64,000 nucleotides of DNA from an uncultured Pirellulales bacterium (GTDB taxonomy: Bacteria > Planctomycetota > Phycisphaerae > Sedimentisphaerales > SM23-30), in NCBI GenBank assembly GCA_964482555.1, contig CAYZXY010000001.1, positions 5,915 to 69,914 on the forward strand. The letters run 5' to 3'. Every line of letters starts with the position of its first letter. Positions within the stretch are counted from its first letter, which is position 1. The position numbers were made by a program, and so were the translations under genes. This document shows, in pieces, positions 3,359 through 44,639 of the stretch. The notes below the pieces were generated by a model that saw only the letters and a list, made by a program, of their open reading frames with translations, made no database searches and had not been told where the DNA came from.

Positions 3359-3459
3359 TGCTCGTTCTGGTTGAAAATACCCCTTTTGTCGGAACGTAAT
3401 TATATGCGAACAAAAAGCTTACGCCCGGCCCTGCCCGGTGCTTTCTACCCGTTGGGGTA
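3359..3459 (+). repeat. 101-bp MITE-like element, copy in F orientation
   Basis: Alignable end to end with the copies at 22449 and 10678. Flanked by TA (3357-3358) and TA (3460-3461). The right end lies 23 nt upstream of the GTG start at 3483. Confidence 0.8.
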
Positions 3460-3482
3460 TAAAACAGTTACGGAGTTAAAGG

Positions 3483-4436
3483 GTGAAGCCCTTATATACA
3501 TTTGTCATTAATCCCAAATCAGGTTCCCGCTCCGATGCCGCATCTGTCCGGCAGTTGAAAAATTACCTGATCGGCCGGGATTGCCGGGTTAAGATTTATC
3601 AGACGCAGTCTCTCGAACATGCGGCCGAACTGGCCCGCAAAGCTGTGGAAGATAATGCGGAAATGGTTATTGCCGCCGGTGGAGACGGGACAATCCGGCA
3701 TGTGGCTGAGGGGCTCGCAGATTCAAATATTCCTATTCTGATTGTACCTACGGGAACAGAAAATCTGCTCGCCCGGGAAATCAATCTGGACGGCACAGTC
3801 GATCAGGAGCTTAACGCTTTGACACACGGTCACTTACGTAATCTTGATCTGGGGATGGTTAATGGCCGCTGTTTCATTTCCGTGGTGGGGGTGGGCTTTG
3901 ATGCCGAAACCGTCCGGCGGGTTCACGGGAAAAGGCGGTCCCATATTACACACATGAGCTATGTCTGGCCAATTTGCCGGACATTCTGGGAGTACCAGAT
4001 TGAGCATGTACGGGTAGAGGCTGATGGCCGTTTGCTGTGCGACGAGCCGGCGCTGGTGTTTGTGAGTAATAATCCGCGTTATGCCGTCGGGCTGCAGCTG
4101 ACACCGGATGCCGACACCAGCGATGGATTGCTGGATTTATGTATTTATAAGTGTGCGAATCGCTGGGAGCTGATCTGGCATTCAATTCTGACGCTGTTTC
4201 GACTGTCGCAGAAATTTCCCCGGCGGGTTATCCGGACGCGCTGCCGGCAGGTGCATATTTCCAGCGATGTCGCCCGAATGCTTTCGCAGGTGGATGGCGA
4301 CCCTGGACCGCCGCTGCCGTTGAAGATTGAGGTAATGCCGGCCCGGGCCCGGCTGTTGGCCCCGCCGGAGCAGGGAAAAGATTACTATTACCGTCCCCGG
4401 CGTATGTATCATCTGCGGCGCTGGCTGTTTCGGTGA
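3483..4436 (+). CDS. diacylglycerol/lipid kinase family protein (YegS/BmrU-like)
   Basis: 317-aa ORF with a GTG start. DAGK catalytic-domain motifs: FVINPKSGS, IAAGGDGTI, VPTGTENLLA. Confidence 0.8.
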   Translation: MKPLYTFVINPKSGSRSDAASVRQLKNYLIGRDCRVKIYQTQSLEHAAELARKAVEDNAEMVIAAGGDGTIRHVAEGLADSNIPILIVPTGTENLLAREINLDGTVDQELNALTHGHLRNLDLGMVNGRCFISVVGVGFDAETVRRVHGKRRSHITHMSYVWPICRTFWEYQIEHVRVEADGRLLCDEPALVFVSNNPRYAVGLQLTPDADTSDGLLDLCIYKCANRWELIWHSILTLFRLSQKFPRRVIRTRCRQVHISSDVARMLSQVDGDPGPPLPLKIEVMPARARLLAPPEQGKDYYYRPRRMYHLRRWLFR

Positions 4437-4487
4437 AAGAGTTGAGAAGTTAATAAGTAGATGAGGAAGCATAAAGTAACGGACGAT

Positions 4488-5186
4488 TTATTTTGTAACG
4501 TTGTATAAAGAGTGGATGACTTTTGCCGGTTCGGGATTATCAAAAATATAACTGCCGGCTACGAGCGTATCAGCGCCAGCGTTAACGATTTCTGGTGCGG
4601 TTTCGAGGTTGATGCCGCCGTCCACTTCCAGCCGCTGATCGTCACGCAGCATGGCGCGGAGTTCGCGGGCGCGATCAAGACTCTCGGGGATGAAAGACTG
4701 GCCGCCGAAACCCGGCTCGACGGTCATCAGCAATACCATATCCACCTCGGCAATAATATCCCGCAAGGCCGCAACGGGTGTCGCCGGTTTTATGGAGAGA
4801 CCGACGGCAACGTCTTTCTCCCGCAGCAGCCGGATGACTTCGCGCGGATCGTCGTTGGCCTCCAGATGAAAGGTGATGCCGTCCGCGCCGGCGGCGATGA
4901 ACATCGGGCCGATATGCAGCGGATCGGTCACCATGATATGCACATCAAAATAAAGCCCGCTCACCCGCCGAATCTTGCGAACGACCGGCGGCCCGATCGT
5001 CAGGTTCGGTACAAAATGCCCATCCATCACATCCAGATGCAGCATCCGCACTTCCGGCTCGACCGCGGCGATATGCTCACCCAGCCGCGCGAAATCAGCG
5101 CTCAGAATCGACGGGGCTACTTCCACCGTACCCGCCGGAGGTAATGTGCGTTTCATGTTTGCACCTGCCTTTTCCAACATACTCAT
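4488..5186 (-). CDS. rpe: ribulose-phosphate 3-epimerase
   Basis: 232-aa ORF with motifs APSILSADFARLGE, HLDVMDGHFVPNLTIGP, MTVEPGFGGQSF, EVDGGIN. Confidence 0.92.
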   Translation of the reverse strand: MSMLEKAGANMKRTLPPAGTVEVAPSILSADFARLGEHIAAVEPEVRMLHLDVMDGHFVPNLTIGPPVVRKIRRVSGLYFDVHIMVTDPLHIGPMFIAAGADGITFHLEANDDPREVIRLLREKDVAVGLSIKPATPVAALRDIIAEVDMVLLMTVEPGFGGQSFIPESLDRARELRAMLRDDQRLEVDGGINLETAPEIVNAGADTLVAGSYIFDNPEPAKVIHSLYNVTK

Positions 5187-5266
5187 AACTCGTTCTTGTT
5201 TAGATGCATTATTCTAATGCTTCTGATAAATGCCGCAAGAATTATTTATGCGTAAACGCATCGCCC

Positions 5267-5992
5267 TTAGTCGGTTGTCCGGGCGAATTCGTCGATGAGG
5301 GCGACGATGTTGCTGTGGCCGTTGTTGGCGGCGAAGTCGCGGGCGGTATCACCGTCCACGTCGACGATGCGCCAGTCGGCAGAGTTCTCCAGCAGCAGGC
5401 GTACGTTGGCGGAGTGCCCTTCGGTGGCCGCGAACATCAGTGCGGTAAAGCCTTCGCTTTTTTCGACGATGTTCACCTCGGCCCCGCCGGCCAGCAGAAC
5501 TTTGATGGTATCATAAAATGGGCCGCTCGCGGCGAACATCAGCGCCGTCTGTCCCATGCTGTTCTTATGATTGACATCAGCTCCGCGTTCGAGGAGGATT
5601 TCGACCAGGGCGGTATGGCCATTATAGGCGGCCAGCATCAGGGCGGTATTGTTTATCTCACCGACGGCATTCACATCTACCCCCTCGTTGAGCAGCCGGC
5701 GGACCGTTCGCAAGTCGCCTTGCAACGCCGCTCTGAAAAAGGCTTCTCCGGCCGGTTGAACAGATTCCGATGTTTCAGCCGTCTTCCGCGTTTGTTCCGG
5801 AATTGGTTCCGGTTTCACTTCCGGTTCCGGGGCGGCAGCCGTCCCAGAGCTGTTTTCGGTTGCGGCCTGCGGCGCCGATTGCACCGGCGGCTTTTCGGGC
5901 GGAGCGGGCGGCTGCTTTGAATCACAACCGCATATATACAAAAGACCTGAGATGAAAAGACAAAACGTCATTTGATAAGTTGTTTGCCACAT
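5267..5992 (-). CDS. ankyrin-repeat lipoprotein
   Basis: 241-aa ORF. Signal plus lipobox (LLYICGC), a Pro/Glu-rich linker, then at least 4 ankyrin repeats (TALMLAAYNGHTALVEILLERGADVNHKN and others). Confidence 0.8.
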   Translation of the reverse strand: MWQTTYQMTFCLFISGLLYICGCDSKQPPAPPEKPPVQSAPQAATENSSGTAAAPEPEVKPEPIPEQTRKTAETSESVQPAGEAFFRAALQGDLRTVRRLLNEGVDVNAVGEINNTALMLAAYNGHTALVEILLERGADVNHKNSMGQTALMFAASGPFYDTIKVLLAGGAEVNIVEKSEGFTALMFAATEGHSANVRLLLENSADWRIVDVDGDTARDFAANNGHSNIVALIDEFARTTD

Positions 5993-6127
5993 AGTTCTAC
6001 CTTATCCGGTAAGACCGGAATGTCGATGGATCATGTTTAATTCTTAGCCTTTACCCTCGTTCCGTCGGTTGAGGCTAGACCGTTGCATCGCGGCTGATAC
6101 TCTTCCGCTTTAAGCCTGGACGCCTCT

Positions 6128-6520
6128 TCATGAAACCGCCTTCAAGACATGCTCAGCCACAAACACCGGCATACTGTTCACCACACCCAGAGCGATCGCA
6201 TCGCTCGGCCGTGAATCCACCTCGATCAGATCCTTTCCCCGACGGATCAGCAGCCGGGCATAAAACGTATGGTCCCGCAAATCGTTAATCACGATTTTCT
6301 CAAGCTGACCTTCCAGATCGACAATCACATTAAACAAAAGGTCATGCGTCATCGGCCGGGCAGGCAGTTCCCCCCTCAATCGCCGGTTGATCGCCAGCGC
6401 TTCGGAAATCCCGATTACAATCGGGAAAGAGCGATCGCCGAATTTCTCCTTCAACACGATAATCTGCTGTTCCGAGTTCTCCTGTATAATAATCTGGGAC
6501 AGCTCCATTTCCACTTCCAT
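6128..6520 (-). CDS. bifunctional nuclease family protein (DUF151/BFN domain)
   Basis: 130-aa ORF. FPIVIGISEALAI...RPMTHDLL...RPSDAIALG is the typical BFN-domain pattern. Confidence 0.7.
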   Translation of the reverse strand: MEVEMELSQIIIQENSEQQIIVLKEKFGDRSFPIVIGISEALAINRRLRGELPARPMTHDLLFNVIVDLEGQLEKIVINDLRDHTFYARLLIRRGKDLIEVDSRPSDAIALGVVNSMPVFVAEHVLKAVS

Positions 6521-6558
6521 AGTCTTACCTCGTTAATTAATTTTATTATAATGGGATG

Positions 6559-9500
6559 TTATTCCAGATCCGCTAGATTCTTCTTCACGCTCGCCAACTG
6601 CTCCTTGAGCTGGGCCAGCCGTTCCCGCTCCCGCTCGACCACTTCCGGTTTCGCCCGGCTGATAAAATTCTCATTTGCCAGTTTCTTCTCGCTCCCGGCA
6701 ATGCCTTTAGTCAACTCTTCCTGCTGCTTCTCCAATCGTTTCTTCTCCGCTGCCGGATCGATAACATCATCGACATAGATTTCCATCTCCTCGCTGACCG
6801 CCGTTGCCGCCCGCAAAGGCTTCTCGCAATTCGGACCAGCGACAAACGCGCTCGATGCCGTCATATTGCATATCACATGCTGCTGCTCGTTCAGCAGACT
6901 CGCCAGTGACTCATGGGTTCTTACCGACACATTCAGCTTCTTCTTCGGCGGAACCTGGTATTGAGTCCGGACGTCGCGAATCGCGCGAATCGTCGCCTGC
7001 AGGATGCCCATCTGCTGTTCCGCTTCTGCGTCGTAAAACTCCGACAGACGCTTCGGCCACTCCGCCGTAATCAACAACTCCGAACTCTCCAGTTTCGCCA
7101 GATTGCCCAGCCCGCGACCCGAACACATCTTATGCAGCTGTTGATAAATCCCTTCCGTAATAAACGGCAGGAAAGGATGCAGCAGCCGCAGACAATTATC
7201 CAGTACAAACGCCAGCAACCGCTGAGCCGTCGGCTTCAACTCCTCGTCCCGCATCCGCGGCTTGATCAGTTCCAGATACCAGTCGCACAACTCATTCCAG
7301 AAAAAACGATAAAGCTGGTTGATCGGTTCACTGAATTTGAATTCCTCCAATTGCGTCGTAACCTTGTCAATTGTATCCGCCAGCCGTGACAAAATCCACT
7401 GGTCTTCCAGGGTCATGTGCGATGGCTCGAAAGGTCCGGTTGGCGGATCTTCCAGATTTCCCAATGCAAACCGCGATGCATTCCAAAGCTTGTTACAAAA
7501 ATTCCGCCCGATGTCGAACTTGGGACTCGTATTCACCACCCGCCCGTCCGGCAGCGCCATTTCCTCCACCGGCATCCGCACATCCTGCGTCTGCGTCGTC
7601 ATGCTCGCCAGCGCAAAACGCATCGCGTCCGCCCCGTGGCTGTCGATCGCCACCAGCGGATCGATCCCGTTGCCCAGGCTCTTGCTCATCTTGCGTCCCT
7701 GCCCGTCCTGAATCATCGCATGAATAAACACATCCTTAAACGGAATATCCCCCGCGCAATACTGCCCCATCATCACCATCCGCGACACCCACAGCGTGAT
7801 AATCTCCCGTGCCGTACACAGCACGCTGCCCGGATAATAATGCTTCATCAACGCCTCGCCGTCAACCCCTTCTTCCGGCCAGCCCAACGTACTGAACGGC
7901 CACAACGCCGATGAAAACCACGTATCCAATACATCCGAATCCCGCTGCCAGCCGTCCGCCTCCAATTTCTGCTCAATATCAATATGTTCCTTGCCCACAC
8001 ACACAAAGGTCTTAGCACCTTCATCGGTGTCTATGCTAAAAGATTTGACATGGTCGCCATATTCAGAAAAAACATATCCGCTCCCCGCCTTCGACCACAC
8101 CGGAATCTGATGCCCCCACCACAACTGACGACTGATCGGCCAGTCCCGCAGATTCTCCAGCCACGTCTGATACGTCTTCGCGTACCGCTCCGGAATGAAC
8201 CGCAACCGCCCGTCCAGCAGCGGCTTCAGAGCCAGGCCCGCCAGCGAATTCACCGGCACATCCGTCCCCTCGATCGTACCGCCGCCGATGGTCTCCGCCA
8301 GATGCTCGATCGGCTTTTTCACCGCGATATACCACTGATCCGACAAATACGGCTCAATCGGTACATGACTGCGATAGCTATGCCCCACATCATGGGTATA
8401 ATCTCGCACCTTCTCCAGCAAATCCTCCTGCCGGAACCACTCAACAATCGCTTCACGGGCCTCAAACCGGTCCATCCCCAGAAAGGCCTCCGCCTCACTA
8501 TCTTCGCCCCTGGCGTCCTCCCAGCCATATTTGTCGCTGATCGAGCCATCCGGAGCCATCACATTAATCACCGGCAAACCATGCCGCAGCCCGATTGCCC
8601 AGTCATCCGGATCGTGCGCCGGGGTGACTTTCAAAAATCCCGTCGAATATTTCGCCTTCTCCTCCGAACTCTCCGGGTCCGGCAGTACCACATGCTCATC
8701 CGCGATAATCGGAATCAACCGCCCTACGATCGGCAGCCGTACCATCTTGCCCACCAGCGCCCCCGCCCGCGGATCGCGCGGGTTCATCGCCACCGCCGTA
8801 TCACCCAGCATCGTCTCCGGCCGCGTCGTCGCTACAGTTACGTGTGTTATTGTATCGCAGGCATCTTGCCCCCCCCATAATTCATCCCGGTCAAAACAAC
8901 CTATCCATTCCCATTCCTTCAATCCCGCTTTTTCCGGATTCTCCAATACATAAGCTACTTGATTCTCAAAATCTGATTCATCACATATCAAATGATCATG
9001 ATATTCAACCATCCAAAGATTACCGGTACGATTCAATACTTTATTTATCTCATCAGCTGAAAAAGACTTCCAGGAATGGACTATTTCACTAAGTTCATTA
9101 TCTCCCAACGGCCGAACGACAACATGAACATGATTAGGCATAATAACCCAAGCAACCAATTCATACCGGTTCCCATGAAAATACAATAATGCATCTTGCA
9201 CGATTTTCGCTGCTTTTGAATCTTTTAAAACACACTCGCCATGACCTGCATTTAAATAAGACTCAATTTTATCTGAGAACAAATGCTTCAATTCCATCAC
9301 TTCATGAATTGTTAGTTCTCGATTTTGCTGTTTCGCTCTATCAATAATATCCTTACGTTCCTGCTGCCATTGTTCTGACACATCAGCCGGCACAGAATCC
9401 CCTAAGCGAAAAGTAACTGCATAAGTCGCACCTTCCCTAATCCAATGCGGAATATACGCCCCTCTCCGTTTGGATATCCTCTGTACCACGGGCATCTTGC

Positions 9501-10200
9501 CCATGTTTTCTCTTTCCTCATTATTTTCCACGGGCTGGAAGCCCGTGTTACACTCCACCGCCTCCACCAGCGGATACTTCATGTACCAGAAATGACCTTG
9601 CACCGTCTCGTATTCCACTTCATCATCCGCCAGCACCGTCTGTGTCGCCGGATCCCAGTTCACCAGCCGCTTGCCCCGATAAATCAATCCATCCCGAAAC
9701 AGATTGAAAAAATTCGCCCGCACAGCCTTTGCGCACACTTCATCCATCGTGAACCGCACTCGCTCCCAGTCGCACGAACATCCCATTTTCTTAAGCTGCT
9801 CGATAATCTTTGCCTCATACTCATCCTTCCACGCCTGTACCCGTTCCACAAACTCATCCCGCTCGAAATCCGTTCGTCGCTTGCCTTCTTCCGCCAATAT
9901 CCGCTTCTCCACGACCGTCTGCGTCGCAATCCCCGCATGGTCCGTCCCCGGCATCCACAGCGTGTGATACCCCTGCATCCGCCGCCAGCGTATCAGAATA
10001 TCCTGCAATGTATTGTTCAGCGCATGACCCAGATGCAGCGCCGCCGTCACATTCGGCGGAGGGATAACAATGGTATAGGTCGGACCAGAATCCGCCCCAT
10101 CGGGAATGCCGGCATGGAAAGCATTCGCCCGGTTCCATATCTCATTGGCGTTTTCTTCGATCTCTTGCGGTGCGTATAACTTGGGCATCTCATCCAGCAT
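6559..10200 (-). CDS. valS: valine--tRNA ligase carrying an in-frame insertion of ~235 codons
   Basis: 1213-aa uninterrupted ORF. Class I motifs HLGHA (HIGH) and KMSKS, editing motif [11 protein letters not shown], and a C-terminal coiled coil. Residues ~217-450 are foreign (see the mobile_element feature). Confidence 0.95.
   Translation of the reverse strand: [1213 protein letters not shown]
8857..8874. repeat. REP-like hairpin (imperfect) at the 3' border of the embedded RayT gene
   Basis: The plus strand reads GCAGGCA-TCT-TGCCCCCC. The 14-mer GCAGGCATCTTGCC is identical to 61988-62001. The 12-mer GGCATCTTGCCC (8860-8871) repeats directly at 9491-9502. Confidence 0.6.
9487..9505. repeat. 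REP-like hairpin overlapping the internal ATG of the embedded RayT gene
   Basis: CACGGGCA-TCT-TGCCCATG. The same arms occur at 46032-46049 (CACGGGCA-AGC-TGCCCAT). Confidence 0.6.
9529..9547. repeat. perfect 8-bp hairpin at the 5' border of the insertion
   Basis: CACGGGCT-GGA-AGCCCGTG. It shares the CACGGGC arm with the 9487 and 46032 hairpins and lies inside the valS reading frame (NTGFQPVEN). Confidence 0.55.
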
Positions 10201-10242
10201 ATGCGGTATTACTTTCTTAAGTGTTTTGTTTACATGCGATTA

Positions 10243-10345
10243 TAATCGTCATGATTTAATGTACCCGTTTTGACCAAACGTAATTATTTGCGGATAAAAC
10301 ACTTACGATTGGCACTGACGGGCATCCACAGAAAACCTTAATTAT
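10243..10345 (+). repeat. diverged copy of the MITE-like element
   Basis: TAATCGTCATGATTTAATGTACCCGTTTTGACCAAACGTAATTATTTGCGGATAAAACACTTACG aligns with the consensus. The right third has diverged. The left end lies 42 nt upstream of the valS ATG. Confidence 0.6.
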
Positions 10346-10677
10346 AAGTGACTGATACCCCTTGTCAAGCAACCGCTTTCCCGTCCACCATGGGCAGTAT
10401 GCACATCCCGCCTTATCAGACGTCATGGTCCACTTACAGTTTTTTCTATGTCAGAACCCTTAACACTTGGCCCGGATAAACTGAAAATCCGAAATAGAAG
10501 ATGTTCTCTGGTGTTATGATGATTTACAGTGAAATGCTTTATGGACGTCATGCCTGATATGCGGAAACAACCCTCCGAGGCATCATTTTCGCCAGTACTC
10601 ATTTTTATTGATTTAGCATTTTTCTGTAAGCGTTTTGGCGTTCCGCAGGGTCTGTTAAGCCTTTTCCTGAAATGTTA

Positions 10678-10778
10678 TACTCGTTCCGATGGATAATTCC
10701 CGTTTTGCCCAAACGTAAATATATGCGGGAAAATCTTTAACGTCTGGCCCTGGCGGGAACTCTTATACCTTTTGGGTA
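10678..10778 (+). repeat. 101-bp MITE-like element, F orientation
   Basis: Full-length alignment to the consensus. TA at 10676-10677 and at 10779-10780. Confidence 0.8.
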
Positions 10779-10906
10779 TATCACAATAAAAAGTGCGAAC
10801 TCGCACACTCATAAGTGATTCAAAATAAAGAACGCCCTTTTCGAGAGCCACCATTGTCTCGATCAGGGCGCTATGTCTAGGCGATATATTTAAAAGCGTT
10901 ACTGCT

Positions 10907-11647: not shown

Positions 11648-11713
11648 ATCTCTCTCCCAACTAATCAGGTTTATCTGCCCCTGTTAAAACTAAAACAAGG
11701 TTTTTAGTCTGGA

Positions 11714-12493: not shown

Positions 12494-12544
12494 TCGTTTC
12501 TAATTGAGATCGAATAAAAAAATTAATCTCTTTCTTCCTGAAGC

Positions 12545-18037: not shown

Positions 18038-18166
18038 TACGATTCAATCGGCATCGATTCATGCCTGCCGTGTTTGAGCCAGGCTTGCCTCTTCCACGTT
18101 CTGCGTCTTACGTCCCACCTGGCACATTCGCCTGGCTCTGCCAGGAGCTTTTTACCCGATTGGGTA
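18038..18166 (+). repeat. 129-bp rearranged variant of the MITE-like element
   Basis: The right half, CTTACG...CCTGGCTCTGCCAGGAGCTTTTTACCCGATTGGGTA, aligns with the consensus and has a ~19-nt insertion. The left half is rearranged. TA precedes it (18036-18037) and TA follows it. Confidence 0.5.
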
Positions 18167-22443: not shown

Positions 22444-22448
22444 TATTA

Positions 22449-22549
22449 TACTCGTTCCGATTGAAAATCCCCGTTTTGCCGGAACGTAATTATTTGCGGA
22501 TAAAAAGCTTACGCCCGGCCCTGCCGGGAGTTTTCATACCCTTTGGGTA
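22449..22549 (+). repeat. 101-bp MITE-like element, F orientation (reference copy)
   Basis: TACTCGTTCCGATTGAAAATCCCCGTTTTGCCGGAACGTAATTATTTGCGGATAAAAAGCTTACGCCCGGCCCTGCCGGGAGTTTTCATACCCTTTGGGTA. TA occurs on both sides (22447-22448, 22550-22551). The left end lies 5 nt from the permease ATG. Internal hairpins are CGTTCCG/CGGAACG, CCCGGC/GCCGGG and ATACCC/GGGTAT. Confidence 0.85.
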
Positions 22550-23614: not shown

Positions 23615-24301
23615 CTATGCTTTTGGAGGCCGACCGACGGGCAGAGGATGCAGCCTCTGTTTGAATTTCCGTTCCAGTTCGTCAATAAATTTATCGCCGC
23701 CGAGCGGGCGGCCGGTCTGGGTGAAGGTGCGAATCCTTTCCCGGATTTCCTCGTGGAGTTTCTCTTTGAGGAAATCGCTCCACTTGTTCAAAAGGCGTTT
23801 CGGCGGCCAGACATGCAGCGACAACACCTGCAGCTCGTCCCGACCGGCAACATGCGCCGACGCACTGGACCAGGGATAGTTCTCCGGTTTTCTGACCATC
23901 TTTTCGTACACCGGTTGATTTTCGACGTATTTGACGGCCAGCTTCAAGTATTTATCATCAAGGGCACAGGACTGAAAACGGTTGCGCCACAATTGTCCCT
24001 CTTTTTTGCGGCGGTTATTAAGGTAATGCGTGTACGAAAAATTCGTCCGGCCGACTGTACGGGACAGGGCATTGTTTTTTCTGGGTATCCCCACCAGATA
24101 GAACCCCTTGTCCAGCAGGCAGTAAGCCAGAATGTCAAAACTGTACTTCTGTGCCTGTTCGGTGAGAATCTCCAGAAACATCAAACGGTCTTTATCCGTA
24201 TGAAATGCCTTTAATCCGGGCATCGCTATCTGGAAAATATGGTGTGGTGCGTCTATTACTGTTATTCTGGCTCGTCTTGGCATGGGGGATATTCTAGCCA
24301 T
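23615..24301 (-). CDS. IS200/RayT-like Y1 transposase homologue lacking the HUH motif (probably catalytically inactive)
   Basis: 228-aa ORF. The family scaffold is present (PRRARI...HHIFQ...DKDRLMFLEIL...ILAYCLL, GQLWRNRFQSCALDDKYLKLAVKYVENQPV...YPWSS). The expected LMxNHxHLL is replaced by LLDKGFYLV, which has no histidines. Confidence 0.6.
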   Translation of the reverse strand: MARISPMPRRARITVIDAPHHIFQIAMPGLKAFHTDKDRLMFLEILTEQAQKYSFDILAYCLLDKGFYLVGIPRKNNALSRTVGRTNFSYTHYLNNRRKKEGQLWRNRFQSCALDDKYLKLAVKYVENQPVYEKMVRKPENYPWSSASAHVAGRDELQVLSLHVWPPKRLLNKWSDFLKEKLHEEIRERIRTFTQTGRPLGGDKFIDELERKFKQRLHPLPVGRPPKA

Positions 24302-25105: not shown

Positions 25106-25132
25106 ATCCTGCCCCGGCTAAACCGGAAGGTG

Positions 25133-25210
25133 TACTGTTTCCGATTGAGATATCGCTTACGCGGCTCTTCGTGTTCCGTTTTCTCCAATCGGCTCCATAC
25201 CCTTTGGGTA
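25133..25210 (+). repeat. 78-bp internally deleted variant of the MITE-like element
   Basis: Left end TACTGTTTCCGATTGAGA and right end TCCATACCCTTTGGGTA, followed by TA. The left end lies 27 nt upstream of the SagB-like ATG. Confidence 0.6.
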
Positions 25211-26574: not shown

Positions 26575-26840
26575 AGCTTAAATAGTTATCGGAACAAATC
26601 GGTATAGCTATTCCTTTTTCATTTTGTTTCATCGGTATATCTGGGATGCAACTTTGACACTTTGTTTACTGAAAAAACCAGGGAGGAAAAAAGTACCCCA
26701 GAATAAATTATCTGTGTGCGATACGAAAAAATCCTGCAAGCACCCTTCGTTACCCGCAGGTTTTGACAAATATGAATTTTTCTACCCAATTGGGCAGCAA
26801 GCTCCGGACAAGGCCGGGAAATTGATAATCGCGTATTGCT

Positions 26841-27459: not shown

Positions 27460-27560
27460 TACCCAATGGGGTAGAAAGCTCCCAGCAGGGCCGGGCGTAA
27501 GATCTTTATCCGCAGACAATTACGTTCCGACAAAGCGGGTATTCTCAATCGGAACGCGTA
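27460..27560 (-). repeat. 101-bp MITE-like element, R orientation
   Basis: The plus strand reads TACCCAATGGGGTAG...CAATCGGAACGCGTA. TA at 27458-27459 and 27561-27562. It lies 16 nt from the flavoprotein ATG. Confidence 0.8.
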
Positions 27561-31810: not shown

Positions 31811-32049
31811 GGACGGAAAGTCCGAAGGCATGAGAATCTTAATGTTAGAAGGCCCAACGATCTCAGGACATGAATGGTTGCCATCTCACGTAACAGACTG
31901 AAAGCTGCCTTGCATACCGCTTTCGATTGAATTTAAGTTTAAGCGGCTTATCCTGCCCCGTTTTATCCGACCATAACTACATACATTAAAAACGGTTAAA
32001 CATGGCAGCCATCCCCACTTCCGTTGGGTAAGGCCCATGTGACAAAGCG

Positions 32050-33254: not shown

Positions 33255-33352
33255 TACTGTTCCTATTGAATTTTCCGTTGTGTCGGGACGTAAACATTTG
33301 CGAATAAAACGGTTACGCTCATCCCCATCCGGAATATCTACCCCATGGGGTA
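33255..33352 (+). repeat. MITE-like element, diverged full-length copy, F orientation
   Basis: TACTGTTCCTATTGAATTTTCCGTTGTGTCGGGACGTAAACATTTGCGAATAAAACGGTTACGC...CTACCCCATGGGGTA, preceded by TA (33253-33254). Confidence 0.65.
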
Positions 33353-33418
33353 CCAGACACGGATTTTCTTCTCAAATTCGTTTTTGCGATAACAGAAAGC
33401 CCTCACTAAATAACATAT

Positions 33419-34370: not shown

Positions 34371-34470
34371 TACCCAACGGATATGGGATGTCCGCCAGGG
34401 CCAAGCGTAAGTGTTTTACCCGCACATAATTATATTTTCCCAACTTGAACATATTCATTCGTTACCAGTA
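34371..34470 (-). repeat. MITE-like element, diverged copy, R orientation
   Basis: TACCCAACGGATATGGGATGTCCGCCAGGGCCAAGCGTAAG...CATTCGTTACCAGTA. TA at 34369-34370 and 34471-34472. Confidence 0.65.
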
Positions 34471-34557
34471 TATAAACTGCTTCCCATTGAGTTTCCCGTT
34501 CGCAGGAAGCAGATGCGGACCTGCTGGAATATGCGTGGGAGAAAACCGGATGAGCGG

Positions 34558-35556: not shown

Positions 35557-35787
35557 GACTTTTACACATTAAATTAAGATAACAGGACCGCCTGAATATA
35601 GCCGGACTGGTTCAATTAGTCAATATCATTTATCGTAACCATTCACAGGAAATAACCCCTCACATGAAGTGAGGGGTGGTTATGGGCTAATATGACGACC
35701 CCCCGATGTGACATCGCGGGCTATTGTGTTCAATTAATCAAAAAATCATAATCGAATGAAAATTCTACAAATGGTTTCCATTCAACT

Positions 35788-37266: not shown

Positions 37267-37270
37267 ACGA

Positions 37271-38104
37271 TCACGCTTTTCGTCCGGTAATGAGCAGAAT
37301 GCTTCTCCAGGGAACTACAACAGAAGTCAACAGCAGCCTCATCAAACGCGGAATTTTTTTCGTCATGCCGGAACAGAACCGCCATGACGCCAGCTCCTGC
37401 GTTTTTAGATATCTCTTTTTGGAAATCCTGAATCCTGCCTGCTCCATTGATGTTGATAATTCTGACATCGTATATTCTCTAATATGCATAATTAGATCTG
37501 TGATATGGTTCATACCTTCATCGTTATCAGGAAAAGGTTCCATGATATTTCTGCCCAACATAAGCATCGCTATATTATTCAACCTTGCGATATTTGGCGT
37601 CGTAAGAACAAGATAGCCATTGGGTTTTAATATCCTATACAATTCTCCTAAAACTCTCAGGGGGGACATGCGTAAATGCTCCAGCACTTCTGACAATATG
37701 ACTATGTCGAAACTTTCATCTGGAATAGACTCGCCAGGTTGAAAAATATTATAGGGAATAACTGGAATATCATATTTCCTCGGGAGATGGCAATACAAAT
37801 CGATGTTTTCTGAAAGATCAGCGCCGGTCACGTCAAAATTATAACATTTCTTAAAGACGATATCGTAAAAACCATAGGCGATCCCAATATCAAGAATCTT
37901 CTTACCAGATGCTACCGGGGCCAAAAGCTTCACCATTTCATGAATTCTATAGTAACTGTCATAAAAATATCTCTTGGCGCTGTCCGAAGAAATAATATTC
38001 GATCTGTAATCTCTTCCTGAACTTTTAAATACTTCATCGATTTCATGCACTATTTCATGTAGTGTGTTGTCAATTATTATCATGGCATACGATCCAATAG
38101 TCAC
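37271..38104 (-). CDS. class I SAM-dependent methyltransferase
   Basis: 277-aa ORF with motif I ILDIGIAYGFY and a post-I acidic residue, plus VILSEVLEHL. The gene is AT-rich. Confidence 0.7.
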   Translation of the reverse strand: MTIGSYAMIIIDNTLHEIVHEIDEVFKSSGRDYRSNIISSDSAKRYFYDSYYRIHEMVKLLAPVASGKKILDIGIAYGFYDIVFKKCYNFDVTGADLSENIDLYCHLPRKYDIPVIPYNIFQPGESIPDESFDIVILSEVLEHLRMSPLRVLGELYRILKPNGYLVLTTPNIARLNNIAMLMLGRNIMEPFPDNDEGMNHITDLIMHIREYTMSELSTSMEQAGFRISKKRYLKTQELASWRFCSGMTKKIPRLMRLLLTSVVVPWRSILLITGRKA

Positions 38105-38138
38105 AGTATGGACTAATCAAGTAAATATTGTGTGATTT

Positions 38139-39341
38139 TTAAAATAACGATGTATAGATACTGTCGAGTAGCTTTTTCGTATGTTTACTAGTTCGATTTT
38201 GAATGATTGTCCTTCGAGCATTTTTACAAATCGAATTCAATGAATCATAATGGTCTAAAATAAAGATAATTTTTTCAACCAATGATTTAGAGACCCCTTT
38301 TTCGTAAACAATGCCGTTTTCATTATTAACCAACAATTCAGTTATACCTTTGACATTACTTCCCAATACTATTTTTTCCATAGCCATTCCTTCCAATATT
38401 TTGGAGGGATTACTACATTCAGCAACCCAGGAAGGCATCATCGGCACAACCAGCACATCAATCGCTTTATAATATCGAGGCATTTGGTCATATGGAACCT
38501 GGCCTAATAGTTCTAATAGTTCAGGTTCAGTATTTCGATATTTTTCAATCTCATTGACCAGCGGACCTCTCCCGCAAATGACAACTTTCATTATGTTCTT
38601 ATGTTGCTCAGAAATATGCTTGAGTGACTCAAGGAAAAAAAGGACGCCATTACTGGGATGTAGCAATCCGCTATACATAAAAACTATCTTATCTTCCCAG
38701 CCATATTTATGACGTAAATATGCTCTGTCATCTTCATATTTTTTTGAATCAAATATTGCTTCATTAACAGCGGCTGGTATGATTCGTATCTTGTCTGAAT
38801 CAATCCTGAATAATTCAATAAGACGTTCCTTTTTCATTTTGGTTTGAACAATAATGCGATCCGCCTTTTGTATAAAAGAAGCCTCTTCGATCAAAGAAGC
38901 TTTTTTAATAACTGGCTTGAAAAAAGGGGAAATATTGGGATTTATCTCAACGCTGTCAAACGGCAATTGATGGTATTCATAAATTAACGGTAACTTTTTT
39001 TTTCGAGCGACGTTTAGTGCTGCTCGATAATACACAGCAGGATTATGTCCGTGTACAATATCATAATTCCCTTGAGAGGCTTTTTTTGCCATGCATCCGG
39101 CATTCATGATGGATATGGGATCAATAAGCGGAGGTGAAAACATAAGTTTTTTCCTTAAGCAATGCCTGAATACTTTTACATTGTCATACTCGCTCTGTTC
39201 CGGGATTACTTCACATTTTAAATCAGGATAAGGTACGTGAAGGTAATGGGTGTTCTCGTCACCTGTCAACATGTACAATAATCTGGAGGTCGTACCTCCA
39301 TACTGGGGTATAAAAGAATGTGCAAAATGGAGGATTTTCAA
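38139..39341 (-). CDS. GT-B glycosyltransferase (family 4-like)
   Basis: 400-aa ORF. The C-terminal domain pattern (VVPMMPSWVAECSNPSKILEGMAMEKIVLGSNVKGITELL) resembles the E-x7-E GT4 motif region. The gene is AT-rich. Confidence 0.7.
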   Translation of the reverse strand: MKILHFAHSFIPQYGGTTSRLLYMLTGDENTHYLHVPYPDLKCEVIPEQSEYDNVKVFRHCLRKKLMFSPPLIDPISIMNAGCMAKKASQGNYDIVHGHNPAVYYRAALNVARKKKLPLIYEYHQLPFDSVEINPNISPFFKPVIKKASLIEEASFIQKADRIIVQTKMKKERLIELFRIDSDKIRIIPAAVNEAIFDSKKYEDDRAYLRHKYGWEDKIVFMYSGLLHPSNGVLFFLESLKHISEQHKNIMKVVICGRGPLVNEIEKYRNTEPELLELLGQVPYDQMPRYYKAIDVLVVPMMPSWVAECSNPSKILEGMAMEKIVLGSNVKGITELLVNNENGIVYEKGVSKSLVEKIIFILDHYDSLNSICKNARRTIIQNRTSKHTKKLLDSIYTSLF

Positions 39342-40564
39342 GCCGTTTCTTTCCTTATGTTCGTCTTCCGGCTCAGGTTATGCCGGTATAAATCGAGCAG
39401 GGGCCGGACGGTCTGACTCCAGTTATAGCGGTCCAGGACCGCCGTTTTGCCTTTCTTTCCACGCTGGACGCGCGTCGTATCCCGGTAAACCTCCAGCACT
39501 GTTGCCGCCAGAGAATTTTCATCGTCCACCTGAAAAATATAGCCGCAACCGGCATCGTTAACGACCCGCATCATGGGGCGCGTACTGCTGACGATGACCG
39601 GTTTTTCGAGCATCATATATTGAAATATTTTATTGGGCATGGTCGTTTCGATATGAGGCGTCGAGATATGCGGGATCAGGCCCACCTGACACGCTTCAAT
39701 GTAAGACGGCAATCTGGTAAAAGATTGATAGCCGGTAAATTCAACCCGGTCGCCGAGATTCATCGACCGACTCAATTCTTCGATTTCGTTTTTACTGGGA
39801 CCGTCTCCGACAATCAATAGCTTTGCGCGAGGAATTTCTTTTATAATCAAAGGCATCGACCTGACAGCCGTATCCAAACCGCGCAAAGGACAAATGGCGC
39901 CAGTGTACAATATAACAAAATCGTCCTTGTATTGCTCAACAATCGAGGCATCTATCTGTAACCCGGAGAAATAATCTATATCGTCGGTGTTCGTAATTTC
40001 TATAATATCTTCCGGGCTTTTGTTTAAACTGACGATTCTGGGAATATGCTCACGGGCGACAACGATGATTTTATCCGACCAGCGGCAGGCGAACCTTTCT
40101 TCCAGGTTAAGCAGACTCAACAAAATAATTGCAAAAGGTTTAAACTTCTGATATGTTTTCGCCTTAAAACTGTGTTGCAGCATTTCGGTGTAATGCTCAT
40201 GCATATCGAAAACGATCGGGAGACCTGCAACCTTACCCGCCAGCGTTGCCGCAAAGGCATAAGGCAAATCATGAACATGCAGGGCATCGATACGATATTT
40301 CCAGCAGGCATAAAGGATTAGAAAAAACATAAAATATCGTTGAAAAAAGAAATAGATCAAATCCGAAATAGCTTTCTTCCACTGGCATGGCAACTCCACA
40401 CGTATGACATTGATGCCATCGATACATTCTTCACGCGGCTGCCCGGGTATGCGCCGGGCCATCAAATACACCTGATGACCGTCGCGAATCAGATCGCGGG
40501 CCTCGCGCTCGACACGACGGTCGGGTGGGAAACGATTGGTTGACAGTACCATCAATAGATTCAT
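39338..40564 (-). CDS. GT-B glycosyltransferase (family 4-like)
   Basis: 408-aa ORF with LIVGDGP...VEFTGY...GLIPH...NKIFQYMMLEKPVIVS. There is a 4-nt overlap with the downstream GT gene. Confidence 0.75.
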   Translation of the reverse strand: MNLLMVLSTNRFPPDRRVEREARDLIRDGHQVYLMARRIPGQPREECIDGINVIRVELPCQWKKAISDLIYFFFQRYFMFFLILYACWKYRIDALHVHDLPYAFAATLAGKVAGLPIVFDMHEHYTEMLQHSFKAKTYQKFKPFAIILLSLLNLEERFACRWSDKIIVVAREHIPRIVSLNKSPEDIIEITNTDDIDYFSGLQIDASIVEQYKDDFVILYTGAICPLRGLDTAVRSMPLIIKEIPRAKLLIVGDGPSKNEIEELSRSMNLGDRVEFTGYQSFTRLPSYIEACQVGLIPHISTPHIETTMPNKIFQYMMLEKPVIVSSTRPMMRVVNDAGCGYIFQVDDENSLAATVLEVYRDTTRVQRGKKGKTAVLDRYNWSQTVRPLLDLYRHNLSRKTNIRKETA

Positions 40565-40821
40565 TAGTTATCCATAAAAACCAGGCCAATAACTCAATAC
40601 AGTACGTTTGAATAACTAAATAAAGTAACGAAAAAATGATGAAATTAAAAGTTTTTTATATGCGGGCAGCGTAAACTAATCTACAGCCGAAAGGGTCGTA
40701 ACCTTTTTTTATGCATACACATACGTTCCTGATAAGTTTCATTTCCGGATTATTAATCGTTAATTGCATTTCAATGAACATTACTGTAACATGCCCTAAA
40801 AAGATTACAGGAGGTCAAACT

Positions 40822-41922
40822 ATGGCAGTACCAATGCTGGATTTGCGGGTGCAGTTTGGTCCGTTGCGGGATGAGATTATAGCGGAAGTGACGGACGTGC
40901 TGGACTCCCAGATGTGCGTCGGCGGGCCAAAGGTGGCGAAGTTGGAGCAGCAGGTGGCGGCGGCGTGCGGATGCCGGTACGGTGTGGGGGTCTCCAGCGG
41001 GACCGATGCGATACTGAACAGCCTGATGAGTCTTGAGATCGGATCGGGGGATGAAGTGATAACTTCGCCGTTTACGTTTTTCGCGACGGTAGGCTGCATT
41101 GTTCGGTTGGGGGCAAAGCCGGTTTTCGTGGATATTGATGAGAAAACATACAATATCGACGCCGGGCAGATCGAAGGGGCAGTAACGGAACGGACGAAGG
41201 CGATTATGCCGGTGCATCTGTATGGGCAGATGGCGGATATGGATACGATCATGCAAGTGGCTGAAAAGCATGGACTTAGCGTGATAGAGGATTGCGCCCA
41301 GGCTATCGGCAGCACCTATAAGGACCGCCCTGCCGGGAGTATTGGGACCGCGGGCTGTCTGAGCTTTTACCCGACAAAAAATCTCAACGGGGCCGGCGAC
41401 GGCGGCATGCTGGTGACGAACGATGAATCACTGCATCATCGGGCGATGATCATGCGGAATCACGGCATGGAGCCGAAATATTATCATAAATTTGTCGGGG
41501 GCAATTTCCGGCTGGACGCGATGCAGGCGGCGGTGCTGCTGTGCAAGCTGCCGCATCTGGCGGCCTGGAACGAAAAACGCCGTCAGAACGCGGCGATTTA
41601 TGACGAGAAATTCGCGGGAACAGACATTATAACTCCATATATATCAAATGATTGCGCATCGACTTATCATCAGTATTGTATTCGGGCACCGCGTCGGGAC
41701 GAGCTGGTCAGCCACCTGAGGGAAAATCAGATCGGTTGTGATATTTATTACCCGGTTCCACTGCATTTACAGGTATGTTTTGCTGATTTAGGGTATAAAA
41801 AGGGTGATTTCCCGGTATCCGAGGCGGTTTCAGAGGATATTCTGGCCCTGCCAATCTATCCGGAACTGACCGAAGTTATGCTGGAAGAAGTGGCGGACAC
41901 AATCATAAGCTTTTACAAATAA
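40822..41922 (+). CDS. DegT/DnrJ/EryC1/StrS-family sugar aminotransferase
   Basis: The start was moved to ATG 40822 (MAVPMLDL), preceded by AGGAGG at 40809-40814. Motifs: GSGDEVITSPFTFFAT, PVHLYGQ, SFYPTKNL (PLP lysine). Confidence 0.88.
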   Translation: MAVPMLDLRVQFGPLRDEIIAEVTDVLDSQMCVGGPKVAKLEQQVAAACGCRYGVGVSSGTDAILNSLMSLEIGSGDEVITSPFTFFATVGCIVRLGAKPVFVDIDEKTYNIDAGQIEGAVTERTKAIMPVHLYGQMADMDTIMQVAEKHGLSVIEDCAQAIGSTYKDRPAGSIGTAGCLSFYPTKNLNGAGDGGMLVTNDESLHHRAMIMRNHGMEPKYYHKFVGGNFRLDAMQAAVLLCKLPHLAAWNEKRRQNAAIYDEKFAGTDIITPYISNDCASTYHQYCIRAPRRDELVSHLRENQIGCDIYYPVPLHLQVCFADLGYKKGDFPVSEAVSEDILALPIYPELTEVMLEEVADTIISFYK

Positions 41923-41942
41923 GAAATTTAGACGATATTGCT

Positions 41943-42977
41943 TTAAAGCTCTTCGCCGTGGGCGGCTTTTTCCAGTGTTTCAACGATGAAAGACGTCATG
42001 TCGATTTTATCGCGAAGGAGTTTTTCGCGGGCGGCCCGGGCGTTTTCAGTCGTACCGGGCTGCTGAAGCAGAGATACGGCTTTGTTCTGGATGTCGTCCA
42101 TATCGAGCGATTGCCAGAGCAAGCCATAATCTTCCATCATATTGAGGTAGCCCAGCTTGAGCGAATTGACATAGATCGTCGGTACGCCCAAAACGCAGGC
42201 TTCCGAAGCGACCGTCGCCCCCTCAGCCACGCACAGGGATGCGAAAGCCAGCAGGTGGTGAATGTGATGCACCGGCACGGTCATGCGATAGGGTTCAAGT
42301 TCATGGGGCAAAGGGCCTTCGGATGTAATATAAGGCCGGGCATAGCGGGCAATTTCATTAACAAAGACGATTTTTTTCTTCTCATCGAGGCCGCGCTGGC
42401 CGACATCATGTATCGCGCCCCAGCTTACCATGCGAATAACACAGTATCTGCTGTCAGGATCAATGTCGTTTTGACGGAGAACGTCGGGATCGGGAGTAAA
42501 ACGTCGGGGGTGCAGATAGGCGAGTTCGTGACAGCCGGGGTAGGTTCGCTGCTTTTTACCGGCCGATTTGGTGTAACAATCAGGGGTCAAGACATACCTG
42601 GCAAACGGCCAGGTGAGGATATGAATCTGTTTCTGATGCTCGGTATCGTCCCAGACGACGGCAGGCTTACCGGTGAGAAAACCGGCATGCGAGGCAAAAA
42701 CACCGCTGACGCTGGTCAGAACGTCCGGCTTGAACTGCCGGCAGAACCGCCAAAGCTTATAATCCCGCATGAGCATTTCCACGAACAGGCCGGCGGGCCC
42801 TTTGCCGACGTGGGTGAGCTTTACGAAGGGAATCCGGTAGTTTTCGAGCAGCGGAATGGCGACATCTTTTTCGCGTGCCGTCACGGCGACATTATGGCTG
42901 CGCTGCTGCAATTCGGCAATGGCCAGCCGGAAAAAATGGACATCGCCGGGATGTATGATCTCGAATAAAAAGTTCAC
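41943..42977 (-). CDS. DUF354-family protein (GT-B/epimerase-like; glycan cluster member)
   Basis: 344-aa ORF. From memory, the N-terminus FEIIHPGDVHFFRLAIAELQQRSHNVAVTAREKDV fits the DUF354 pattern. Confidence 0.55.
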   Translation of the reverse strand: MNFLFEIIHPGDVHFFRLAIAELQQRSHNVAVTAREKDVAIPLLENYRIPFVKLTHVGKGPAGLFVEMLMRDYKLWRFCRQFKPDVLTSVSGVFASHAGFLTGKPAVVWDDTEHQKQIHILTWPFARYVLTPDCYTKSAGKKQRTYPGCHELAYLHPRRFTPDPDVLRQNDIDPDSRYCVIRMVSWGAIHDVGQRGLDEKKKIVFVNEIARYARPYITSEGPLPHELEPYRMTVPVHHIHHLLAFASLCVAEGATVASEACVLGVPTIYVNSLKLGYLNMMEDYGLLWQSLDMDDIQNKAVSLLQQPGTTENARAAREKLLRDKIDMTSFIVETLEKAAHGEEL

Positions 42978-43114
42978 AAATCGCTCCTGAACCTATAATT
43001 TGTTGTTTTGCCATCGATCATAAAACCGGCTAAAATGTAAATTATTATGGATATGATTGCAAGCAGTTAAATGAAGGACTGAAACGGCCGCCGGGCGGCA
43101 TCCAATGAACCGTT

Positions 43115-44417
43115 ATGATGAAATCATTTACAAGATGGCTGGTTCGCAGGTGCATCAAGGACCATGCGCAGGTAAGCAATCCTGAAGTACGGGGCAGATA
43201 CGGCCGGCTGGCGGCGACGATCAGCATCGTGCTGAATGTCCTGCTGTTCATCATCAAGGGAACGATGGGCATCATGCTGCACAGTGTGGGATTGATTGCC
43301 GATGCAGTGCATACCCTGACAGATTCGGGTACCTCCATCATCATTTTTATCGGGTTTCATCTGGCTCAGAAGCCGGCCGACAAAGAGCATCCCTTCGGGC
43401 ACGGGCGGGCGGAGTCTATCGCGGCCCTGGTAGTGGCACTGATTCTGATTGTTACGGGTATCGAAATATTGAAATCATCGGTGATTAAGATTTTCGATCC
43501 GGTAATACAATCAGACAAGATAAATGCCGTGGTCGTTGTTATTTTAACCGCTACGGTAGTTCTCAAGGAGCTGATGGCGCGGCTGGCCGTGACGATGGGC
43601 GATATGATCGAATCTATACCCAAAGGGTATGAAAATTCCCGGCAGGGCCGGGCGTAAGCTTTTTATCCGCAAATAATTACGTTCCGGCAAAACGGGGATT
43701 TTCAATCGGAACGAGTATAAAACGCTCACGGCGGATGCCTGGCATCATCGCAGCGACGCCTTTTCGACGGTCATGGTATTGCTGGCAATGCTGGCGTCTT
43801 ATTTAGGCATTCATAATCTGGACGGGGTAGCGGGAACGGCGGTATCTTTGATCATCATGTACAGCGGCTATATTATTGCACGGGACACGATGAGCCCCTT
43901 GATGGGCGAACGGCCGAGCAAGAACATGATCTATCGCATAGAAGATCTGGCACGAAGAATTCCGGGAGTATGGGGAGTGCACGATGTGATAGTGCATCAT
44001 TACGGTCACACGAAACTGGTATCGCTGCATATCGAAGTGGATGACCGGGAAAAGGCGATTGATCTTCATGAGATATCAGACCGGGTGGAATATTTCATTG
44101 AAAAGGAAACCGGAGCCGCGACGGTGGTGCATGTCGATCCGCTGAACGTCCGGCATGCCCGGTACGGCGAGATTTACCAGACAATTCGGGATACCGTCGC
44201 CGAAAATGACAACATCAGCAATTTTCATGAATTGCGCATTATCGGTCAGGGCGAGAAAGTCATCGCGGATTTTGAAATCACCTTGTCGGAAAGCGCCGAT
44301 CGCCGTCGTAAAAAATCGATAATCGCCAACCTGCAGAAAGATCTGGCCCTGCGGCTGACGGGCGTACAGGCCCGTATCAAGGTCGATCCCCTCTTTGTTT
44401 CCAACACACCGGAATGA
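43115..44417 (+). pseudogene. cation diffusion facilitator (CDF) family transporter split by a MITE insertion
   Basis: The first ORF (43115-43657) ends in element-derived IPKGYENSRQGRA*. The second frame resumes at TLTADAWHHRSDAF (43722 onward). Deleting 43617-43719 (103 bp) gives ...GDMIESKTLTADAWHHRSD..., a single 399-codon ORF with CDF motifs (ADAVHTLTD, HPFGHGR, DAWHHRSD) and a C-terminal cytoplasmic domain. Confidence 0.8.
43617..43717 (-). repeat. 101-bp MITE-like element inserted inside the CDF gene, R orientation
   Basis: About 95% identical by eye to the reverse complement of the 22449 copy. TA at 43615-43616 and 43718-43719. Confidence 0.9.
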
Positions 44418-44539
44418 TAAGTCGCTGCCAGGAGTTATCGGACAGCGGAAATGTCGATATATTTTAACGGTGATGTATAAAACAGGTCGATATCTACGGC
44501 TGTACCAATGATCGTTCCGCCAGAGCAGTATGGCATTAA

Positions 44540-44639
44540 TACCCAAAGGGTATGAGAATTCCCGCCAGGTCTGGACGTAAAAGCTTTACCCGCTCATATT
44601 AACGTTTGGATAAACGGAAATAATCAATCGGAACGAGTA
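44540..44639 (-). repeat. MITE-like element, R orientation
   Basis: TACCCAAAGGGTATGAGAATTCCCGCCAGGTCTGGACGTAAAAGC...CAATCGGAACGAGTA, followed by TA. The left end of the element (in its own orientation) lies 12 nt upstream of ATG 44652. Confidence 0.75.

Follow-up and report, generated by a model that had tools for sequence, protein, structure and literature searches.

What is the short repeat that recurs so often in a 64,000-nt stretch of contig CAYZXY010000001.1, from an uncultured planctomycete, and what moves it? An earlier reading of this stretch (the window, below), made from the letters alone, described a TA-flanked mobile element and considered two kinds of enzyme for it, an IS630/Tc1-mariner transposase or a RayT-like Y1 transposase. 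Our results point to non-autonomous DNA transposons, or miniature inverted-repeat transposable elements (MITEs), of the IS630/Tc1-mariner type, in at least two families, F1 (about 101 nt) and F2 (78-116 nt), and we put the probability of this at roughly 0.8. The argument takes its direct evidence from the repetition of the element, the exact size of one insertion, the TA flanks and the homology of the ends to IS630 remnants; the mechanism that we propose follows the known behaviour of the IS630 family.

Copies of the F1 repeat

A hidden Markov model (HMM) was built from the eight near full-length F1 copies named in the sequence-only reading and used to scan the window with nhmmer. All eight were recovered at the positions first given, 98-101 nt long and with E-values from 3.8e-21 to 6e-32, together with a ninth copy. 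Mechanical repeat finding also recovered F1 on both strands, and a 30-nt core of the element occurred three times in the window at three or fewer mismatches, against no occurrence in 100 shuffles. The copies are the following (ORF, open reading frame).

3359-3459, plus strand: 101-nt copy, TA on either side; it sits between divergently oriented genes, 23 nt upstream of ORF 3483 (E 3.6e-27)
10243-10325, plus strand: copy without the right-end palindrome, TA on the left (profile match 10246-10325, model positions 4-83; E 3.5e-16)
10678-10778, plus strand: 101-nt copy with TA on both sides (E 1.5e-27)
22449-22549, plus strand: young copy, equal to the consensus, with TA on both sides (E 8e-32); Logan contig L008 breaks inside it
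27460-27560, minus strand: 101-nt copy with TA on both sides (E 1.2e-28)
33255-33352, plus strand: diverged 98-nt copy with TA on the left only (E 3.8e-21), also present in Logan contigs L001 and L002
34371-34470, minus strand: 100-nt copy, the most diverged, with TA on both sides (E 6.9e-22)
43617-43717, minus strand: young copy within a CDF transporter gene, with TA at 43615-16 and 43718-19 (E 6e-32)
44540-44639, minus strand: 100-nt copy with TA beside the left end of the element only and TT opposite (E 1.1e-25); Logan contigs L006 and L007 start inside it

The consensus proposed earlier is exactly the copy at 22449-22549 (100%), and only 1 nt separates the copy at 43617-43717 from it (99.0%), whereas the remaining copies show pairwise identities of 56-85%. 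F1 therefore consists of two very recent, near-identical copies and of others that are old and decaying. Along the element conservation varies little (0.78-0.87 per segment), and it is slightly higher at both ends. Copies are found in both orientations and in all kinds of intergenic context, and one is intragenic.

Weaker matches add the following.

1615-1665, plus strand: weak left-end remnant, 81% identical over 32 nt (E 1.1e-3)
18128-18166, plus strand: F1-like right-hand 39 nt, with hairpin 2 as CCTGGC and GCCAGG, the terminal palindrome and TA on the right (E 2.6e-4)
26783-26818, minus strand: weak right-end remnant (E 5e-3)
56548-56610, minus strand: weak remnant of F2 type whose terminal palindrome has decayed (E 3.6e-3)

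With eight full and one truncated F1 copy, three F2 elements and the remnants, the window holds about 15 elements or remnants, in keeping with the high density reported for it before. The sequence-only reading had counted about 12 copies, four of them as variants or remnants. The one at 10243-10345 is a true copy that lacks its right end and the one at 1615-1665 a weak remnant; in 18038-18166 only the stretch from 18128 belongs here, 18038-18127 being other sequence that holds an inverted left-core motif; and 25133-25210 is a member of F2 rather than a remnant. That listing had missed the F2 elements at 31915-32030 and 59114-59213 and the remnants at 26783-26818 and 56548-56610. Elements of both families are short (78-116 nt), non-coding and dispersed in multiple copies, as MITEs are, and a six-frame translation of the F1 consensus had no match among 5.8 G proteins.

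An exact insertion in a CDF transporter gene

The size of the element can be read from the copy that interrupts a gene.

43115-44417, plus strand: CDF gene (Cation_efflux and ZT_dimer, Pfam), divided by the 43617 copy into two ORFs, 43115-43657 and 43773-44417

Upstream of the copy Pfam finds positions 2-121 of 198 of Cation_efflux, and downstream of it ZT_dimer. The last codon before the copy, for serine, ends at 43615, and the reading frame is taken up again at 43722, so exactly 103 nt have to be removed. Deletion of 43617-43719 (103 nt, that is, 101 plus TA) yields a stop-free ORF of 399 aa, which covers 98-100% of its homologues (393-402 aa) and aligns end to end with 12 of them, gap-free through the junction ...MIES/KTLTADAWHHRSD (here and below, a slash within a sequence marks the boundary). 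The consensus at this junction is MIxSKTLEADFWHHRSD, with invariant S167, L170, A172, D173, W175, H176 and H177. The filled site has the sequence GAATC-TA-[TACCC...GAGTA]-TA-AAACG, and at the protein level the empty site would have been GAATC-TA-AAACG, with GAATCTAAAACG as the expected sequence. TA is the sole direct repeat compatible with the junction; it is 2 nt long and leaves an element of 101 nt, TAC...GTA. A strict 2-nt TA duplication is the signature of IS630/Tc1 elements. Insertion with a target-site duplication, and TA as the duplicated target, are thus both found for this family, at the CDF site and in the TA flanks. On this evidence F1 is a mobile element, and the copy at 43617-43717 is a recent insertion that broke the CDF gene and left it a pseudogene.

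The same organism is present in the Logan assemblies SRR7048221, SRR7048222 and SRR7048224, where contigs start or stop inside element copies. Breaks in the young copies are expected, since a short-read assembler meets multi-copy, near-identical repeats there, and no DNA-level empty site was found in these contigs, which end inside copies. The density of F1 suffices to fragment short-read assemblies of its host, and both the contiguity and the annotation of metagenome-assembled genomes (MAGs) are affected. The closest homologue of the CDF protein is only 54% identical, so the host belongs to a poorly sampled, Phycisphaerae-like lineage; homologues of the window proteins bear the names of Planctomycetota, Phycisphaerae and Sedimentisphaerales MAGs.

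Flanks and a second family on the same ends

TA adjoins the left end of F1 in all eight full copies and the right end in six of the eight, as had been described, and the flank consensus of the elements is about TTTA/TAAA, which is roughly palindromic. A second family of 78-116 nt, F2, has a body unlike that of F1 and shares its left end.

25133-25210, plus strand: F2 copy of 78 nt with the F1 left end and the F1 right-end palindrome around a different body, TA on the right only
31915-32030, plus strand: decayed F2 copy of 116 nt, found by repeat finding, without TA flanks
59114-59213, no strand assigned: F2-type element of 100 nt with a left-type end on both sides, making a true inverted repeat (TACTGCTTTCGATTGAG and TAGTCGTGCCGATTGAAAG), TA on both sides

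The terminal sequence common to F1 and F2 is TA/TACTSNTTYCGATTGA, and the left end as a whole reads TA/TACTSNTTYCGATTGA...CCCGTTTT. The right-end palindrome of F1 recurs in two of the three F2 copies, and the ends of 59114-59213 align as an inverted repeat over their first 17-19 nt with few mismatches. The terminal inverted repeat of F1 itself is imperfect (about 15 of 25 positions match, in the TAC tip and in TGAAAAyyCCCG at positions 14-25), which bears out the weakly inverted termini noted before. Judged from these alignments, shared ends on two different bodies, plus one symmetric member, would be typical of elements selected for recognition by a transposase only.

Matching ends in IS630 remnants of other genomes

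The F1 core pattern had no match in 185,579 species-representative genomes and only three chance matches, with no extended similarity, in JGI metagenomes, so F1 as such is not seen outside the window organism. The left-end pattern TATACTSNTTYCGATTGADWWW was then the more informative query: in genome contigs it matched at least 28 loci. Among the matches listed most are chance hits with no second end, and those related to the window elements are L011, L015, L025, L030, L031, L033 and L034. The shared pattern of the insertion sequence (IS) ends had no match in viral contigs.

The most telling locus is L025, in the Phycisphaerae MAG BS750m-G59, a TA-flanked element of 415 bp that is a deletion derivative of an IS630-family insertion sequence. 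Its ends, TACTGCTTCCGATTGAG... and ...TCAATCGGGAGCAGTG, match each other as an inverted repeat at 14 of 18 positions, and both align with the left ends of the window elements. Inside lies a frameshifted ORF, MKDYALSKEKLAELETLHR/SIAVIALSKGWSAAQVSEFLLFDESTSRHYFERYQQGG...LLTENFHIQAA-stop (here the slash separates the two parts of the ORF), which is the N-terminus of a transposase (106 aa). Its best NCBIfam family is transpos_IS630 (E 2.5e-8, model positions 2-95 of 299; the next family has an E-value of 0.066), and it matches Pfam HTH_29, an N-terminal winged helix-turn-helix, at 30.4 bits, over the gathering cut-off. The only plasmid match of this remnant by tblastn lies in Allochromatium, just upstream of an annotated IS630 family transposase; the element there begins TA/TACCG... 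at both ends, and its ORF ends in ...LLTENFAIVGE-stop. A Planctomycetota MAG (L034) carries the same IS end and the first 15 transposase codons before it is truncated.

Two further MAGs hold repeats of this kind. In the Phycisphaerae MAG CSMAG_1890 (L033) there are two TA-flanked, F2-like MITEs with the terminal palindromes TACCCTTAAGGGTA and TACCCTAAAGGGTA. In MAG CAYVUI01, labelled Pirellulales (study SRP141376), four contigs (L011, L015, L030 and L031) end in TA/TACTGCTTCCGATTGAAAATGCCCGTTTTTAAAGCCGGAAGC..., and the 52-nt sequence after TA at the four contig ends, TACTGCTTCCGATTGAAAATGCCCGTTTTTAAAGCCGGAAGCTCAACGAGTC, is identical and thus multi-copy; it agrees with the F1 left end and TA flank at 28 of the first 31 aligned nt. 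TA flanks the window element at 59114 on both sides and is found likewise at the copies in CSMAG_1890, at the 415-bp element and at all four of the CAYVUI01 contig ends. Our alignment of ends (A3) shows 18 terminal positions with little or no variation among F1, F2, the IS remnants and the CSMAG_1890 MITE; together with L025 and L034 this makes the ends of the window elements homologous to those of an IS630-family insertion sequence. The proposal of a TA-duplicating MITE of IS630/Tc1-mariner type is accordingly upheld, by the CDF insertion of 101 nt plus TA and by the homology of the left end to the ends of IS630 remnants.

Set against these ends, F1 has an asymmetric build. The 32 nt at its left match the IS end downstream of the transposase stop codon. 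Its right end, read inward, is TACCCAAAGGGTA-TGAAAACTCCCGG: the subterminal TGAAAAnnCCCG block of the IS ends, preceded by a palindrome of 13-14 nt, TACCC-N3-4-GGGTA, which stands in place of the IS-end TACTSNTTYCGAT (the first 13 nt of the inverted repeat), with the TAC tip retained. The stem of this palindrome is well conserved in nearly all copies and in CSMAG_1890, and its loop is variable.

Proposed mechanism and its weak points

The most likely agent of F1 movement is an IS630-type transposase whose gene lies elsewhere. We infer the identity of this transposase, its present activity in the host and its binding site, and on the analogy of the IS630 family the steps may be pictured as follows. 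A DDE transposase supplied from outside the window would bind the subterminal GATTGAAAAnnCCCG block, which is inverted at both ends, and would then cut at the TAC.../...GTA tips; the element would reinsert at a TA in AT-rich DNA, with flanks of about TTTA/TAAA, and the TA would be duplicated. The element ends would in this way define a probable transposase-binding motif.

Several points weigh against this account. As the sequence-only reading had observed, no cognate transposase is visible nearby: Pfam finds neither an IS630-family nor any other DDE transposase gene or fragment among the about 50 ORFs of the window, and tblastn of the IS630 remnant of L025 against the window gave no match. A cognate autonomous element in the window organism is putative, and the IS630 evidence consists of remnants in other MAGs, not of intact elements. 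The right end of F1 is only a partial inverted repeat of the left, and its terminal palindrome has no counterpart in the IS ends seen. The CDF junction does not formally separate a TA duplication from a 103-nt insertion that carried one TA and made no duplication. Finally, most copies are only 56-85% identical, and the bulk of the family may have lost activity long ago.

The closest known element is the MITE RUP of Streptococcus pneumoniae. It is 107 bp long, is present in about 108 copies, uses TA targets, has ends like those of IS630-Spn1, to which it is attributed, and is presumed to be acted on in trans (PMC2229807). RUP and the window elements share a size of about 100 bp, the lack of an ORF, dispersed copies, TA insertion and IS630-like terminal repeats. 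They differ in host phylum; one end of the window family is a partial repeat capped by a 13-nt palindrome, two families use the same ends, and the matching IS is seen only as remnants in other genomes and not in the same genome. The Correia (NEMIS) elements of Neisseria have TA termini and a TA duplication, a length of about 100-155 bp, a high copy number, strong secondary structure and occasional effects on neighbouring genes (PMC2229807). Their inverted repeats are long (24-26 bp) and good and their parent IS is not known, whereas the window family has a weak repeat and a parent family that can be named. The likeness to both RUP and Correia elements is functional only, by description; no relationship in sequence to RUP is evident, and no similarity to the Correia ends is known. 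With IS630 insertion sequences the window elements share the TA duplication, ends of the form TA/TAC... (as in the Allochromatium copy) and the ends around the transposase remnant of L025, but they encode nothing and are 8-10 times shorter, as derivatives or passengers would be.

F1 is therefore a previously undescribed family of a known type, the bacterial MITE of IS630/Tc1 type, like RUP. Peculiar to it are the asymmetric architecture, the two bodies on the same ends, the host phylum and the local density. A literature search found no description of MITEs in Planctomycetes, and searches with the element end sequences and the SRA accessions returned nothing relevant. The Phycisphaerae and Planctomycetota thereby gain a MITE family whose limits are well defined and whose parent IS family can be named.

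Other explanations

The sequence-only reading had also raised the possibility of a REP/BIME-like (repetitive extragenic palindrome/bacterial interspersed mosaic element) or IS200/IS605-type palindromic element, moved as single-stranded DNA by a Y1 enzyme of the HUH class (RayT-like), with a TTA-like target and no duplication. Short, dense extragenic palindromes and Y1 homologues in the same genome are features that such systems share with the window, which has two Y1 homologues, in a lineage where Y1 modules are rampant.

6559-10200, minus strand: valyl-tRNA synthetase (ValRS), 1213 aa, with an in-frame insert of about 230 aa at about 8866-9570, a complete RayT-like Y1 HUH module
23615-24301, minus strand: free-standing Y1_Tnp/RayT-like gene, 228 aa, REP_Tyr_transpos 44.5 bits (the NCBIfam cut-off is 80 bits)

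The single-stranded F1 consensus does fold into the three hairpins first described (-17.8 kcal/mol, z-score -2.7), each with a (T)AC...GT(A) foot; the terminal palindrome keeps its stem while its loop varies, also in CSMAG_1890; and the CDF junction is compatible with a 103-nt insertion without duplication. Two compensatory changes outside the alignment of the window copies, CG to GC in the left-end stem of the CAYVUI01 repeat and C:G to T:A in hairpin 2 of the copy at 18128, might be taken in the same sense, but the window copies show no covariation. Pairing is found in 74% of cells in nine copies and in 73% after column shuffling, with one double-sided change, so the hairpins are not maintained by compensatory change and the two changes are anecdotes, not signal.

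The Y1 genes themselves fit poorly. The free-standing one has LLDKGFYLV (GFY) where its relatives have MPNHVHxx, so that both HUH histidines are gone while the tyrosine-region motif is kept; judged by these residues it is probably catalytically dead or domesticated, and no element flanks it directly. The intact module in ValRS has hairpins and a direct repeat of its own, unrelated to the hairpins of the MITEs. Relatives with the same ValRS arrangement (L009 and L010) show no element copy in the 20 kb of each, against two copies just upstream of ValRS in the window. A catalytically competent RayT gene flanked by its own REPs, as in a REPtron, is not found in the window. REPs are strictly extragenic, have a conserved 5' tetranucleotide and make no duplication, whereas one copy here lies inside the CDF gene and TA stands on both sides; and where IS200/IS605 elements have asymmetric ends, hairpins on one strand and a conserved target on the left only, symmetric inverted ends occur here (59114-59213 and L025), both flanks are conserved and their consensus is palindromic. 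To this is added the homology of the F1 left end to the ends of a DDE-type, IS630-family insertion sequence. Mobilisation by Y1 or RayT is thus not supported, and we regard it as improbable.

The palindrome leaves room for a variant. TACCC-N3-4-GGGTA could be a functional module rather than a decayed end, a hairpin end processed by the HUH/Y1 domains of the lineage, including the one embedded in ValRS, so that the element would move by a hybrid or alternative route instead of plain IS630 cut-and-paste; we give this little credence. We give as little to a MITE moved by a DDE transposase from outside IS630 that makes short, TA-containing duplications, such as those of IS5/IS427-type groups. The transposase of the host genome is not seen, and the IS630 assignment hangs on a 106-aa N-terminal remnant whose NCBIfam score is under the full-length cut-off, but that remnant finds transpos_IS630 far ahead of the next family, on the plasmid its homologue corresponds to the upstream half of a transposase annotated as IS630 family, and the duplication is of the strict 2-nt kind.

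Least credible is a structured non-coding RNA or a cis-regulatory module (terminator or leader) conserved by function and not by transposition: it would draw on the terminator-like stems on both strands of the consensus, the fold z-score and the several copies 5-45 nt from predicted start codons, but it was dropped because the hairpins pair no more than shuffles do, there is no Rfam match, the copies lie in both orientations and all kinds of intergenic context, one of them inside a gene that it destroys, and they have TA flanks and homology to IS ends. Rfam gave no match at its gathering thresholds (the best below threshold, near one copy, had an E-value of 0.4-0.6), and tRNA and tmRNA searches found nothing for the element; a known RNA family with conserved covariation, which the sequence-only reading had named as an outcome that would overturn it, was thus not encountered.

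The IS630-type MITEs of the window may still have side-effects on neighbouring genes. Stems that resemble intrinsic terminators, with T-rich runs after them, occur on both strands, at 22514-22537 (plus) and 22484-22460 (minus), with equivalents in other young copies, and recall the regulatory side-effects described for Correia elements. Copies also lie 5-45 nt from the predicted starts of genes that read away from them, with gaps at 22444-22448 (ArsP permease), 44640-44651 (ORF 44652), 25106-25132 (nitroreductase), 10201-10242 (ValRS), 1594-1614 (SpoIID) and 3460-3482 (DAGK-like ORF); ORF starts are mechanical longest-ORF calls, and these distances are accordingly upper-bound guesses. The position near start codons could reflect a preference for AT-rich targets or a promoter or leader effect.

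The Y1 module within ValRS

The MITEs represent an ordinary mechanism in a new host, and the in-frame Y1 module in ValRS is the more unusual biology of the window. This insert lies between YMKYPL and ATTRPET of the synthetase. It scores 75 bits against REP_Tyr_transpos, its HUH motif and tyrosine are intact (IPHW..., MPNHVHVV, AYVLENP), it contains no stop codon, and no intein-like junction residues were seen. It is bounded by its own hairpins, CACGGGC-N5-GCCCGTG, at 9529-9547 and 9487-9505, and by a 21-nt direct repeat (9482-9502 and 8851-8871) that is read in two different frames. From its sequence, the insert looks like an IS200-like unit that inserted without breaking the host ORF.

Modules of this type are widespread, with 687 cluster representatives at E<=1e-30 that are 45-65% identical. 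In 40 of the best 149 of these 687 the module is embedded, flanked on each side by over 100 aa of host protein. Across the 149 the catalytic residues are largely retained (HUH histidines in 147 of 149, tyrosine in 138 of 149). The hosts are ValRS, AlaRS, Sua5/TsaC, UvrA, DinG-like helicases and DNA methylases or type IIG-like enzymes, a range that resembles that of inteins. The ValRS fusion recurs in several Planctomycetota and Phycisphaerae MAGs, including those at L009 and L010. Two apparent free-standing relatives (P0128 and P0136) were rejected as pieces of frameshifted genes of the same fusion. On RayT in aminoacyl-tRNA synthetases, a literature search turned up nothing that describes this arrangement.

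Other genes of the window

By Pfam, the about 50 ORFs of the window are ordinary housekeeping and envelope genes. Among them, a 446-aa protein encoded at 1682-3022 on the minus strand joins TPR repeats to a pair of RNA polymerase alpha C-terminal domains (two stretches that match Pfam RNA_pol_A_CTD, E 4e-44), an architecture that is unusual for a protein other than RpoA.

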